A stretch of DNA of 63,184 nucleotides, the filler included, from Octopus bimaculoides (taxonomy: Eukaryota): NCBI RefSeq assembly GCF_001194135.2. It is 5 parts of 4 records of this genome, joined end to end, with 100 filler letters (N's around TTAATTAATTAA, not from the genome) between each part and the next. Parts side by side here need not be neighbours in the genome. Positions count along the whole stretch, not along the records: positions 28,940 to 42,958 come from NC_068988.1; positions 43,059 to 63,184 come from NC_068981.1; 3 more parts are not named here. One strand, written 5' to 3'. The position numbers and the translations under genes are program-made. The notes beneath the pieces are model-generated. The model did not search any database. It saw only the letters and a list, made by a program, of their open reading frames with translations, and was not told the DNA's origin. Positions 30,851 through 62,623 of this stretch are shown here, in pieces. The stretch's first letter is position 1. The number at the start of each line of letters is the position of its first letter.

Positions 30851-30932
30851 CTCTTACAGCTGTTTCAACGAAGCCTAAAGATTAAAATAACAATTATTAA
30901 ATCATTATAATAGGCAAAATCTCATCAGAGGG
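30851..30932 (-). ncRNA. Type I hammerhead ribozyme motif (palindromic stem III), core intact
   Basis: Minus strand: CCCT-CTGATGA-GATTTTGCCTA...TAGGCTTCGTT-GAAAC-AGCT-GT-A-AGAG. Both core segments and the GUA cleavage triplet are intact. Stem I is 3/4 paired; stem II has a GCCTA/TAGGC helix plus an internal loop. Confidence 0.7.
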
Positions 30933-31397
30933 GTAGAAAAAAGATATACCATTAGGTTATTAGGTGTTGTATTTTTGAATCATCGCAGCAGATTCATGAA
31001 TATTATTATTATTCACAACAAATATTAGGTAATAAACCAGTAATTCATTGGATATTACTATCCTTTAATGAGGCTAATTTAACCTCTAATTAAATTTATA
31101 AGCTTTGCAAAAGCATGTTCTCAGGTTCACAGTCCGGCAGCTGGGACAGTTCCTTGTGAGTGAATTTGATTGAGTAAATCTGTGTGAAAGCCAATCATAT
31201 GTACATATATATATATACATACATATATATATATATATATATATACATAAGAATATGAGGAGTTTAGTTCACTGGTGACCTAAACAAATAAGTATGCTGA
31301 GTAAGTTCTATAATTAGTAAGCAGTTAGGTTCTAAATTCACAGCTGAGGCTGGAGCTTGGGATCCATATTAGGTTTCTGAGTTAGCAGGTATATATT

Positions 31398-31605
31398 ATA
31401 TTAGAGGAAAAGGGACAACAAAAACCAAGATAGGACACCTTGTCTCTGATGACGAAATACCTAGTGTACACACATGCTAGCCTATCACTTGGGATATCTC
31501 AGAAACAGCTGTAAGACTTCAGATTCACCTTACCCTAATGAAATATTCTAAGTCATTTGAGATACTTGTCCTACATTAGTTTTTGTTGTCCTTTTCCCTC
31601 TAATA
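31398..31605 (+). mobile_element. ~210 bp element with ~40 bp terminal inverted repeats enclosing a hammerhead
   Basis: Left ATATTAGAGGAAAAGGGACAACAAAAACCAAGATAGGACA versus reverse complement of right ATATTAGAGGGAAAAGGACAACAAAAACTAATGTAGGACA. TA-rich flanks. Confidence 0.75.
31442..31517 (+). ncRNA. Type I hammerhead ribozyme motif (palindromic stem III), core intact
   Basis: GTCT-CTGATGA-CGAAATACCTAGTG...CACTTGGGATATCTCA-GAAAC-AGCT-GT-A-AGAC. Stem I GTCT/AGAC is perfect, stem III ACAGCTGT is self-complementary, predicted cut after 31513. Stem II is partly mismatched. Confidence 0.8.
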
Positions 31606-31624
31606 TATATATATATATATGATA

Positions 31625-32015
31625 CAGAATGGTAAGAATCTTGCTTCTCTACCACATGTTTCTGGGTTCAGTCCCACTGTGTAGCACCTTGGGTAAGTGT
31701 CTTCTGCTATAGCCTCAGGCTAACCAAAGCCTTGTGAGTGGATTTGGTAGACAGAAACTGAAAGAAGCCCATTATGTACATATGTATGTATGTATCTGTG
31801 TTTGTGTGTTTGTGTCTATGTTTGTTCCCCTATCACCACTTCACAACCCGTGTTGGTGTGTTTGCATCCCTGAAACAACGGTTCAACAAAACAGACCAAT
31901 AGAACAAGTACTAGGCTTTAAAAAAGTAAGCCCTGGGATCAATTTGCTTGGCTAAAACCCTTCGAGGTGGTGCTCCAGCATGGCCGGAGTCAAATGACTG
32001 AAACAAGTAAAAACA
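31625..32015 (+). mobile_element. SINE family A, near full-length
   Basis: Head, body, internal tract and 3' half all present. Confidence 0.85.
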
Positions 32016-58828: not shown

Positions 58829-58905
58829 GAAGGGGCTGCTGTGCTATTGGCCTTTGCAAGCCCTCCAACTGCGTTGAAATTGATCGCGATAACATTGCAA
58901 ATTGA
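58829..58905 (+). CDS. Candidate exon after a strong acceptor
   Basis: TTCTATTCACGGTTTTTTTTTATCTGCAG. Phase 1 gives GRGCCAIGLCKPSNCVEIDRDNIAN*; phase 0 stays open to a GG|GTGTAG donor. Confidence 0.2.
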
Positions 58906-61900
58906 CAATCGCAGGAAAGATATTCAGAGAGGGATTCCCAAAGGACAGAATGGGTGTAGTGTTTGTGTATATATCCTTCTGCAGCTCCTCCTCTTCATCG
59001 TCATCATCAAGTCTAAAACAACCAATGAACTTGTACTTATGTATCTCTGCATTGCGTATGCGAAAAAAAACATTGCTTAAATAGAACTCAGATCCTATAA
59101 CTATATATTTTCAACAAATATCCTACAAAATAAACATTAAATAACCCTTTCTACTATAGGCACAAGGCCTGAAATTTGGTGTGAGGGGAACTCGATTACA
59201 TCAACCCCAGTGCTCAACTCATACTTATTTTATCGAATTCAAAAGGATGGAAAGCAAAGTCGACCCGCACGGAATCTTTAAATATTAATTTTGAATATTT
59301 TATATAGTTAGCCGCCTTAAAATAAACATTAAATAAAACCATAGACTTGCGGTCTTTAGATCAGGTCTTTAGATCAGGAAATGCTTTTGCCATGATAAGC
59401 TTCTAACTCTGTACAAGCCTGGAGTACAAGTCATATTGTGCTATACAATACAAATGTACAAATCTATTATATACTACAATTACTAGAAGACAATATGGTT
59501 AATGGGGAAATTTTTACTCATCAACAATGACCAATAACCGGCCGCAGGGATTCGGTTTCTTCTCATTGATTTTCTATAACAATCACATTGACCAAACCAA
59601 TGCAATTCTTGTGTCCCCTATTTTCGTTACAATTGCATTGTCTTTATAGATCTCACTTTGCCTCCTTCATAGAACTGGAACGCTTTAAGATTTCCTCACC
59701 GCTCAGTTTTCGGAGTTTTTTCTGTTTTTAATCCAGACGTTGACGACGTAGACATATCCTCATTGAACATGAATAACCTCGATTTATCATTCAAGGAGGA
59801 CTTGCAAATATGACAAAATGATATTACCGTATTTGATGGCATAAAAGTCACACGGACGTATTAGATGCACCCCAACTTCAGCAGCTCATATTCAGGATAA
59901 AATGCTTTGAGTGATCCAAAATATGTAATAAAGATCCATCATATTTACGTCCTAGAGAGATTTTTCTGAGATATGATTTTTGGGGAAAGAATTAGGGGAA
60001 TGCTTATACATATCAAATATGGTAACTTGATATGAGTTGCCATATTACAATGGATCTATTCATTTAATTGTATTTCATATTTTCATATTCTTCTTTTTAT
60101 TAGTTACTAATAACATCATATTGAAAATCTTTCATGAATGTTAAAAGATTATCCATTGGCCATTTTGTTTAGTCGATGATTAGTCCATGACTTTTACTAA
60201 AGCTATTGTTAGTGATGGGAATGGGTATTAGAAATAAGAGGTACACTAAGGCCCAGGAGATTGGGTTTACGACAGAAGAGAGATTTAACGCAATAATCCC
60301 TCTCACTTGTGTTAGAAAGTGGATAAAATGCCGCCGACATACACACCTGCTCTCCACTTTCATCACTGAGCTCTTGTCTCATCAGAAATGGATAACTTAT
60401 AATATTGCACGATCCTCTACTGGAAAAACATTTAAGCATTAATGCAATTCTATGTTTATGAGATCAGGAATTTATACTATGTACACTGTTTACGTTAATC
60501 GGACTGGTGCCTTCATCTTCATTGTTGCTGTCACCACGTTTCAGTTGTGCACGTAGTGAAAACAACAATCAAGATGAAGACTCCGCTCCAACTAATGTAA
60601 ACAGCGTACATAATTTAATTATCAATTATGGCCAAGGAGGAGCATATACCTTTGGAAAAACAGCAGTTAAAAATAGTACAACCAAATGAATGATAGAGAA
60701 GGAAAAAATTACCAGGATATACATGACATATGAAAAACATATAAATGAGTAAATGCTAAGAAATATAATTTAGTAAATCGCTGTAATGATTAATTTTGGT
60801 CAAGAAAGCAGGAAAGCGGTCCTGTGCAATATCTCACCAACTGTCTTTTAAATGATCACTCCTGTCAGTATTCATTCAATCACAAACTTTCATGTTTCTT
60901 CGGCATCTAGGATTTGTTAAATATCGATAAGGTTTCCAGGATCGTTACTATATAAAAGCATTCTTCACTGCATACTCTCGTTACATTTTTGATTAATTTA
61001 AATTTCGGACTTGTCTCCCTTGTCCTCACTGACCATAATTTCGCATTAAAGTTAATAATACTTTTCCTCTCAAAACAGCTATAATTCTAATCACTTCAAT
61101 TTATTTTGACTCACTACAGCATATACATATACTAACACCACCACCAATAAAAAAACAACAACAACGACGACAACAAAAACAACTCTACCATCCCATTTAA
61201 TTAGAGTAGTTTCATTCTACTTACCCTGTTTTTATGAGTTCTGTGATATTTTAAGTCTATGTATATGTGTATGTATGTACATGTGTGAGTGAGTGTGAGT
61301 AATGTGTGCGTGAGCGCGCGTGTGTGTATGTGTGTGTGTGTGCGTGTGTGCGACGAGAAAGTGAGAGAGAACCAGAGAGAGAAGCAGTGAGAGGGGAAAT
61401 TGAAACTGAAGGAAAAAGTACCAACGCAGCTTTTGGTATCAATGAATGCGTGTATAGAAATCATATACGATAAGATGAAATATACTTACAACTCGCTAGG
61501 AAACCATACGGTGTATACACACCACAGGAGCTTCGGCAGCTGAGAACCGAGATCTTCTGACTGGATTCATCTTTCGGAGAATTCCTCAGAGATTGCATGA
61601 GTCACTTCTATACAAGATTGTATCTTCCTATGAAGAATTATTACTGGCGTGAGGAAATTTACATAAAAGGTTGACGGCCGGAATTTAATAAGAAAAGTAC
61701 AAACAGCAAAAGGCTGTTAATAAATGCGAAAAATAGAAATTATATGAATAAGAGTATACTCGTATCGTCAAAAATGCCGACAGTTTTATTAATGATAGAA
61801 AATGGTGCATCAAAACAATGGGTGAATGTCAGCAATNNNNNNNNNNNNNNNNNNNNNNNNNNNNNNNNNNNNNNNNNNNNNNNNNNNNNNNNNNNNNNNN

Positions 61901-62344
61901 NNNNNNNNNNNNNNNNNNNNNNNNNNNNNNNNNNNNNNNNNNNNNNNNNNNNNNNNNNNNNNNNNNNNNNNNNNNNNNNNNNNNNNNNNNNNNNNNNNNN
62001 NNNNNNNNNNNNNNNNNNNNNNNNNNNNNNNNNNNNNNNNNNNNNNNNNNNNNNNNNNNNNNNNNNNNNNNNNNNNNNNNNNNNNNNNNNNNNNNNNNNN
62101 NNNNNNNNNNNNNNNNNNNNNNNNNNNNNNNNNNNNNNNNNNNNNNNNNNNNNNNNNNNNNNNNNNNNNNNNNNNNNNNNATATATATATATATATATAT
62201 ATATAATATGTGCATGTCTGTGTTTGTACCCCCCAGCATCACTTGACAACCGATGTTGGTGTGTTTATGTCCCCGTAACTTATATATACACACACAGAAG
62301 TGAAGCACTTGAACAATCAGATACAGTTGTAAAGTTGTATATTT

Positions 62345-62623
62345 GACAGATGAAGAATTATGTACATTATTTACATTTGACAGATATTTGTCCTCATCTA
62401 GTTTGTTGTTAACACAACGTTTCGGCTGATATACTCTCCAGTCTTCATTAGGTGTCTTGGTGGAAATTTCGAACCTGGGTTCTCATTCCTAAGATATTTT
62501 TCGATGTTACTATTATTATTATTATTATTATTATTATTATTATTATTATTCAGGTCACTGCCTGGAATCGAACTCGGAATCAGTAACCCGCGCTCTTAAC
62601 CACTACGCCATATGTACGTGGGC
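62345..62623 (-). mobile_element. tRNA-headed SINE (family E) with (AAT)n linker and hammerhead-containing PLE-like tail
   Basis: Minus strand: A box TGGCGTAGTGG, B box GAGTTCGATTCC, (AAT)n, then AGGAATGAGAACCCAGGTTCG, the HHR motif and a 3' tail. Confidence 0.8.
62411..62456 (-). ncRNA. Minimal type I hammerhead ribozyme motif, probably inactive (G5A)
   Basis: GACAC-CTAATGA-A-GACTG-gagagtatat-CAGCC-GAA-ACGT-T-GTGTT. Stem I GACAC/GTGTT, palindromic stem III ACGT, GUU triplet. The core reads CUAAUGA instead of CUGAUGA. Confidence 0.7.

Follow-up and report, generated by a model that had tools for sequence, protein, structure and literature searches.

Hammerhead ribozyme motifs scattered over a 63,184-nt window of the Octopus bimaculoides genome (the whole stretch of DNA analysed here) are probably the ends of Penelope-like elements (PLEs), one lineage of which carries a tRNA-like head, a candidate promoter, and has produced a derivative lacking an open reading frame (ORF). 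For three of the four main repeat families, which we call B, C and D, an endonuclease (EN) ORF lies upstream of the ribozyme, 5' ends are ragged and a second, inverted arm is often present. The initial annotation of the window had proposed that the ribozyme was reused in short non-coding elements spreading in the manner of retrozymes. Its premise that the motifs are Penelope-related and PLE-mobilised is borne out for every motif that could be traced. The reuse of the ribozyme in three short non-coding chassis does not hold: upstream of B and C are Hydra-type ORFs, and D belongs to a Poseidon-type ORF encoding reverse transcriptase (RT) and EN.

Hammerhead motifs and repeat families of the window

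The window joins five stretches of a 2.3-Gb genome, and the finding spans two of them, positions 28940-42958 (contig C8) and 43059-63184 (contig C1). The motifs do all lie within these 63 kb, as first noted, but they are split over two chromosomes joined in the window, and their clustering is partly an artefact of the joining. Families are named after their window copies: A at 30.9 kb, B at 31.4 kb, C at 37.7 kb and D at 62.4 kb.

The sequence GAAACAGCTGTAAGA occurs three times (30852-30866, minus strand; 31502-31516, plus; 37745-37759, plus) and in none of 100 shuffles. The fourth motif, GAAACGTT, belongs to the class with ACGT in stem III and lies at 62416-62451 on the minus strand. A type I descriptor found three motifs in the window, against a mean of 0.57 and a maximum of 2 in 30 shuffles. 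The motif at 30.9 kb, with a stem I of only two pairs in the window copy, escaped the descriptor. An Rfam search returned no hammerhead match in the window at E<=1. The four motifs described in the initial annotation as minimal type I hammerheads are nevertheless real, three with ACAGCTGT and one with ACGT. Two of them are not minimal, with 49 and 55 nt between the boxes across helix II, and two window cores are mutated. An intact CUGANGA box is found in the window only in the 30.9-kb and 31.4-kb copies. The box at 37716 reads CCGAUGA, a form found family-wide in C (21 of 25 copies), and that at 62451 reads CUAAUGA, a mutation private to the window copy of D, since CUGANGA is present in 30 of 30 sampled copies.

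A to D are distinct repeat families: the first three have ACAGCTGT in common, and D has ACGT. First-look candidates in the genome, which are not copy numbers, amount to 821, 1,081, 1,813 and 4,019, respectively. Only the best 40 candidates of each genome search were scored, and the samples therefore favour well-preserved copies. The majority sequences of all four families correspond to type I hammerheads with a palindromic stem III. Those of A, B and D conform in the CUGANGA and GAAA boxes, helices I and II, stem III and the NUH triplet, and that of C does so with a U4C change. Both boxes are canonical in 12/25 copies of A, 16/30 of B, 1/25 of C and 21/30 of D. The predicted self-duplex of stem III reaches -11.1 kcal/mol for ACAGCUGU and -1.7 kcal/mol for ACGU, and the core is hidden in the minimum-free-energy folds of all four monomers. 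Ragged 5' truncation and an inverted upstream arm are seen in each family. Neighbouring second copies are nearly all inverted, and head-to-tail tandem units of 150-450 bp were not found in A-D.

Family D is the end repeat of a Poseidon-type element

The features of the D element in the window are as follows (pLTR, pseudo-long terminal repeat; Pol III, RNA polymerase III).

62330..62486, minus strand: D body and tail, the first ~50 codons of a Poseidon-type ORF, with its ATG at 62486
62416-62451, minus strand: D hammerhead, stem III ACGU, first box mutated in the window copy
62553..62617, minus strand: D tRNA-like head containing an A box and, at 62565-62573, a B box, with (AAT)n behind it; putative Pol III promoter within the pLTR
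62647..62869, minus strand: coding sequence for the GIY-YIG C terminus of this D element, immediately upstream of its head
62819..62986, no single strand: 5' foldback of the truncated D copy, with an inverted ORF arm at 62936-62984

D copies consist of a tRNA-like head, (AAT)n, body, hammerhead and tail, in this order, with a sharp 3' end. The head stands directly behind the stop codon in 24 of 28 D-type ORF-end loci (1,384 first-look candidates). In the sampled loci the tail runs on into the ORF without a change of frame, so that body, ribozyme and tail form its first ~50 codons; the identity of tail and ORF start was shown for D only. The majority ORF is 836 aa long and carries the motifs DKG (at 297), GLAMG, YVDD and CVYSIPC, the last without a preceding CxxC knuckle, that is, without a Zn-finger linker before GIY-YIG. 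Natural copies match RVT_1 with E 4e-8 and 5e-10. As judged by its motifs, this ORF is a member of the Penelope/Poseidon clade. The coding remnant at 62647-62869 and the PLE origin of the foldback at 62819-62986, both recognised at the outset, were confirmed.

The D unit had been described as a tRNA-headed short interspersed element (SINE). The tRNA-like head is present, but the unit is the end repeat of the Poseidon-type element, with GIY-YIG directly upstream, and forms no separate lineage. In a tree of 89 D arms (56 short, 33 ORF-linked), 24 changes of label were counted, against 26.8 after shuffling, and 71 of 500 shuffles gave a value as low. A young clade (support 100/95) unites 26 short and five ORF-linked arms. 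We rejected this young subfamily as an independent SINE, given its ORF-linked members and the intermixing of arms in a poorly resolved tree. We likewise rejected the short copies as a non-coding unit distinct from its partner, the whole unit being the pLTR of the autonomous element. By sequence comparison, the short D copies are the pLTR of a Poseidon-type element and not a free SINE.

The sequence just upstream of the D head, TGCCCACGGGCA (62617-62625, and D loci), corresponds to the junction of two complete head-to-head arms, and may be a remnant of one that became fixed.

The G lineage, a sister of D with an ORF-less unit

A further lineage, G, is represented in the window by one feature.

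60424..60618, no single strand: G-lineage foldback of two head-to-head tails, arms 60424-60552 (minus strand) and 60553-60618 (plus strand)

G is an older sister of D, whose heads keep the A and B boxes while the intervening arm is longer and diverged. Autonomous G-type copies are rare (2/30); they are 74-78% identical to D, have the same head and show no TTTT over 543 and 993 nt. In most G copies the ORF is missing: its start (near codon 66) is joined to the stop region, which is followed by head, hammerhead and tail. With the tail as query, this junction was found in 23 of 30 loci, the other seven being four D copies, two copies with another junction and one with neither. With the head as query it was present in 16/30 loci, all without an upstream ORF, and with the untranslated region in 20/30, against two with an ORF end and eight unassigned. 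These three samples overlap in several loci. First-look candidates for the G head region number 1,288.

The units are spaced by 283-292 nt, and head-to-tail partial dimers (1-1.6-mers) occur in 4/30 loci; longer arrays were not seen. G copies average 85% identity to their majority sequence, and the second hammerhead box is intact in 5/30. A common deletion junction at unrelated places indicates amplification of an ORF-less template. On these grounds the G unit of ~290 nt is a tRNA-headed, hammerhead-bearing, ORF-less derivative of a PLE, putatively non-autonomous and with many dispersed copies. An independent ORF-less unit, as first proposed, thus survives in the lineage of the 60424-60618 foldback, which had been treated as merely decayed, and not in B, C or D. 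The window arms themselves are too short to be assigned: they end before the junction and are compatible with the ORF-less or the autonomous form.

In the two autonomous G-type loci, L536 and L537, head and hammerhead are separated by ~100 additional bases, which the ORF-less unit has lost, a second shared deletion. Further internal-deletion junctions of D or G, joining the tail to the head or body, occur once or twice each (L470, L471, L454, L464, L283).

The tRNA-like head and the transcription of family D

The D head has its A box at +8 and its B box at +53. Compared with tRNAs of the genome it scores 57.5 and 68, with tRNA-Ala and tRNA-Arg as best matches, and shuffled sequences score at most 43.5; the comparison set comprises only 22 rows and four amino-acid types. 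The 5' ends of D copies pile up at this head. Among 49 scorable arms of the tail-query sample, on which the count is based (the pooled sample, 59/68, contains a few duplicate loci), six end within the body, 19 within the microsatellite, and 24 extend to the head. Eighteen arms go as far as +20; 15 of them end between +20 and -19, one ends at -25 and two enter the ORF, inside which the stop rate is ~0.002 per nt. Insertions with a single arm also end at the head (e.g., L020, L022, L025, L029).

The D ORF contains no TTTT in 2,508 nt, against 2.9 expected from synonymous shuffles (p 0.025) and 4.4 from base shuffles (p 0.006). A Neptune-type control ORF with the same T fraction (0.23) has seven TTTT runs in 1,749 nt, and the density of TTTT in genomic copies is 0.23 per kb for D and 3.9 per kb for the control. 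Taken together, the A and B boxes, the accumulation of 5' ends, the TTTT-free ORF and a sister family keeping both features suggest Pol III transcription of D. We put forward a wider proposal more tentatively, as a possibility that falls somewhat short of an even chance: this octopus Poseidon lineage would be transcribed end to end by Pol III from a tRNA-derived promoter in the pLTR, its ORF being kept free of TTTT; its short copies would be ready-made SINEs, and one deletion would have sufficed to yield an independently amplified 290-nt tRNA-headed ribozyme element.

Ordinary tRNA-headed SINEs are found at 54115-54490 (plus strand) and at many other places; the head of the 54.1-kb copy aligns to the D head with 43/82 columns.

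Families B, C and A

Families B and C are represented in the window by the following features.

31197..31615, plus strand: family B two-armed insertion, a Hydra-type PLE end, arms joined head to head
31436-31615, plus strand: family B direct arm, with the hammerhead at 31446-31513
31197-31437, inverted: family B inverted arm, head to head with the direct arm
37677..37938, plus strand: family C, a Hydra-type PLE 3' end flanked by (TA)n runs
37716-37756, plus strand: family C hammerhead, with a family-wide CCGAUGA core

Long copies of B contain the end of an ORF, ~900 nt upstream from the ribozyme, in which a CxCX5C linker is accompanied by a YIGS endonuclease and by CxxC and CxH motifs. Long C copies have a related ORF ~800 nt upstream. 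The respective linkers are CNCRSGTEC and CNCRSGTIC, the CxxC motifs CVLC and CKLC and the CxH motifs CKH and CNH, which corresponds to the signature of the Hydra clade as given in the accessible part of PMC8557442. By their linker and EN motifs, B and C are the ends of Hydra-type EN+ Penelope elements. With B, C and D running into ORFs, and with short D copies having no lineage of their own, three of the four headline motifs are truncated ends of autonomous PLEs, an outcome that the initial annotation had named as refuting its reading.

The inverted-repeat mini-element described at B is a one-off two-armed insertion, and its inverted repeat is simply the portion present in both arms. The 216-nt layout is spanned in two of 40 scored places, the window copy and locus L065, with different breakpoints; the remaining places have 5'-ragged ends, often with an inverted arm. 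In view of these two places, and with neither common breakpoints nor fixed ends, we rejected B as an inverted-repeat family resembling miniature inverted-repeat transposable elements. A sharp boundary met when walking upstream of B was likewise rejected as the end of the family, as it is the truncation of the query copy itself. For C, loci L120 and L185, in which a C repeat precedes an ORF, were set aside as a link to the C ORF because that ORF ends in another repeat. The altered C core (U4C; 37716-37722; L116-L140) is present in its 21 of 25 copies despite the fairly young age of the family, at 91-94% identity.

Family A occupies the following positions.

30780..31100, minus strand: family A insertion of PLE-type layout, in two arms
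30780-30993, minus strand: family A direct arm, carrying the hammerhead motif
30852-30928, minus strand: family A hammerhead, CUGAUGA box, long helix II, stem III ACAGCUGU
30993-31100, inverted: family A tail arm, joined to the direct arm

Upstream of A, the sequence shared between copies is non-coding and rich in microsatellites for at least 1.5 kb, beyond which three copies remained. Family A probably terminates another Hydra-type element, one with an extended non-coding region.

RNA reads

Raw RNA reads were available from a related organism. They cover D equally in both orientations, and ~60% continue into unlike flanks. No pile of read starts or ends was found in D, cut site included, in these standard libraries, which are ill-suited to detecting cleavage or circles. 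C is poorly covered in the same reads, with no pile of ends at the cut site. These reads neither support nor exclude cleavage.

Alternative explanations and proposed mechanism

Several observations weigh against reading the repeats as Penelope ends with a promoter head in one lineage. Besides the bias of the samples towards well-preserved copies and the narrow tRNA comparison set, neither ARAGORN nor Rfam, applied also to the head alone, called the D head a tRNA, as expected of a decayed head. The 5' stops at the head are spread over ~35 nt, and the head starts with a short palindrome, GCCCACGGGC, a frequent site of arm junctions that could produce a pile-up by itself. The TTTT deficit is modest for a single ORF; among the Hydra fragments, which are short for this test, Hydra-B has no tRNA head and contains one TTTT against 3.0 expected (p 0.07). 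In G, 16/30 unit copies read through the head into the previous unit, and the head is no hard stop there. The D tree is weakly resolved, with eight of 85 branches starred over 172 columns. For B and C, the EN and the end of the RT thumb were recovered upstream, no copy reached the RT core, and Pfam GIY-YIG matches fall under the cut-off (E 0.14 and 0.056, respectively). The walk of at least 1.5 kb upstream of A met no ORF and no match to a PLE protein.

A rival explanation takes all these repeats as ordinary Penelope debris, the head being a passenger SINE or tRNA fragment fixed in the 3' untranslated region and the true promoter a Pol II promoter in the pLTR. We consider it rather unlikely. 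It agrees with the internal pLTR promoter used by known PLEs, as far as the accessible parts of PMC11167929 and PMC8557442 describe them, and with the reads of the related organism, whose two orientations and ~60% continuation into flanks are what passive transcription would give. The clustering of arm junctions at GCCCACGGGC would let the palindrome, or a nearby Pol II start, account for the pile-up, but single-arm insertions also stop at the head. A low TTTT count might follow from an A-rich coding strand, and the Hydra fragment is likewise poor in TTTT; the Neptune control, however, has its seven runs at the same T fraction of 0.23, and two sister families only 74-78% identical are both without TTTT. 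Furthermore, both boxes were kept while the arm between them changed length.

The view first taken, in which short non-coding elements reuse the hammerhead and spread like retrozymes through cleaved or circular RNA, is very unlikely. In its favour, short D copies are indeed far more numerous (only 2/24 head-reaching arms extend into the ORF), family A is not linked to an ORF, the G unit lacks one and forms 1-1.6-mers, and PLE-derived retrozymes have been published (10.64898/2026.07.22.740005 and PMC7229834, in their accessible parts). Against it, B, C and D terminate elements that carry an ORF, and for these families the view is refuted as stated. The inverted-repeat layout recurs in 2/40 places with differing breakpoints, adjacent second copies are nearly all inverted and not tandem, and copies span the predicted cut site, where read ends do not pile up. 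Decay of the core is also common: both boxes are canonical in 12/25 copies of A, 16/30 of B, 1/25 of C and 21/30 of D, and the second box of G in 5/30. The tandem arrays of retrozymes are lacking in families A-D, and the G unit resembles retrozymes in size and origin.

For the preferred reading, Penelope ends with a tRNA-headed lineage, the mechanism may be modelled on PAc of Anolis carolinensis, for which the accessible part of PMC11167929 reports that reverse transcription starts 111-118 nt into the ORF, that both strands are extended and that ribozyme cleavage is dispensable. By analogy with PAc, the RT-EN protein would nick AT-rich DNA on both strands, cDNA synthesis would start at an internal site ~140 nt into the ORF and each strand would yield one arm; the hammerhead, just upstream of the priming site, would be copied uncut as a passenger. 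Transcription of D would begin at the tRNA-like head. The abundant SINE-like copies of ~300 nt, made up of head, ribozyme and tail, would come from priming at the first repeat, and copies with an ORF, among them the D copy of the window, from priming at the second. In G, a deletion would have fused the ORF start to the ORF stop, giving the ORF-less ~290-nt unit, which would then have been amplified, probably in trans.

Other Penelope remnants and ribozyme-like sequences

Three further features of the window are related to PLEs or hammerheads.

46868..46950, plus strand: fifth, old hammerhead-like family, stem III ACATATGT / ACAUAUGU
50742..50872, minus strand: D body and tail that lost the first hammerhead box by deletion, inserted separately and abutting the ORF of a different PLE
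50885..51485, minus strand: Neptune-type PLE ORF remnant with RT thumb, CxxxxCxxC linker and start of GIY-YIG

The two decayed motifs reported earlier are accordingly those at 50742-50872 and 60424-60618, to which the fifth family at 46868-46950 is added. This family has 14 matches with 71-91% identity, and both boxes are canonical in 4/14. The coding remnant at 50885-51485 was also upheld; it belongs to a Neptune-type family whose pLTR is unrelated to families A-D. The tail at 50.7 kb was rejected as the 3' end of this adjacent ORF, as the 39 other scored copies match the ORF part only and their downstream pLTR differs. Some 430-500 nt downstream of the match, the Neptune-type 3' pLTR (L032-L046) contains a ribozyme-like arrangement, ATCC ... 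TGACGA ... GCGAAAACCGGTTGGAT, which is atypical and departs from the canonical core. Another Neptune-type ORF remnant, covering the N-terminal region with ~50% identity to the 51-kb family, lies at 12807-13513 (plus strand), away from the two stretches considered here. A decayed stretch at 61500-61760, ending by eye like a PLE endonuclease, matches none of three PLE families of the genome. An abundant ribozyme-like family, CTGTNGAAGA ... GCTCGAAACGT, was noticed in flanking sequences (L185:843, L190:186 and 6036, L193:5518); in L185 it sits at the 3' end of a Neptune-like element.

Significance and comparison with known systems

The initial framing is mostly ordinary: truncated PLEs were reported as a source of dispersed hammerheads in 2014, and retrozymes derived from PLEs followed in 2020 and 2026. 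The finding of an autonomous element, its short copies and an ORF-less derivative in one genome makes the origin of PLE-dependent SINEs or retrozymes directly testable and, if the reading is true, traces the birth of such an element. A Pol III-driven autonomous element would in turn raise the questions of how an RNA without a cap is translated and whether the hammerhead lying over the start of the ORF assists in this. In practice, repeat libraries for octopus would wrongly list the short D copies as SINEs. In Schistosoma, the SM-alpha repeats are short, tRNA-related and carry a canonical active hammerhead. We found no published tRNA-headed PLE or octopus hammerhead, in a search that extended neither to Repbase and Dfam nor to subscription journals and bioRxiv supplements, which may hold these families. 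Repeats of Octopus vulgaris have been annotated (PMC13282606), and the one supplement of that paper to which our sequences were compared gave no match.

The window motifs resemble the minimal PLE hammerheads of PMC4209133 in being of type I, with a short helix I, a palindromic stem III and, in D, an extra base after A9. In the accessible part of that paper, most motifs are reported to occur singly and dispersed, "probably related to truncated PLEs", along with opposite-strand pairs 100-700 bp apart. Helix II of A and B is much longer than in those hammerheads, and cephalopods are not named in that part. B and C share with the Hydra clade, as covered in the accessible part of PMC8557442, the CxCX5C linker, the CxxC/CxH motifs, canonical hammerheads, (TA)n targets and reports from Mollusca. 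They differ from it in their long non-coding 3' regions (~900 and ~800 nt before the ribozyme, respectively) and, for C, in the CCGAUGA core. Inverted arms and tails are described for PLEs in the same source.

The G unit is comparable to non-LTR retrozymes (PMC7229834, PMC7761336 and 10.64898/2026.07.22.740005, each in the part accessible), which are short hammerhead-bearing units related to PLE pLTRs, its size being ~290 nt. It departs from what is described there by its tRNA-like head and traceable ORF deletion junction, and neither long tandem arrays nor canonical tertiary contacts were seen in it. Like the non-autonomous Chlamys PLEs such as MRC1 (PMC8557442), it is ORF-less, has pLTRs and forms head-to-tail insertions; the Chlamys elements, however, are found in green algae and mostly lack hammerheads, and no tRNA head is described for them in the accessible text.

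D itself is closest to PAc (PMC11167929): as far as that source was accessible, both have a hammerhead over the ORF start and copies ending shortly into the ORF, no RNA ends were found at the cut site of either, and extension of both strands and insertion without cleavage, as in PAc, would apply to D as well. A tRNA-like head or Pol III promoter does not figure in the accessible description of PAc, whereas D combines such a head with a TTTT-free ORF. In this respect the D head resembles the TRIMp3 elements Cassandra, Helenus and Ajax, which carry a small-RNA-derived Pol III promoter inside their terminal repeat (PMC10886601, accessible part). According to the same text, autonomous retrotransposons are generally taken to be transcribed by Pol II, and the TRIMp3 are non-autonomous LTR elements whose partners are argued to need Pol II; the D head, by contrast, stands in an autonomous element with a 2.5-kb ORF.

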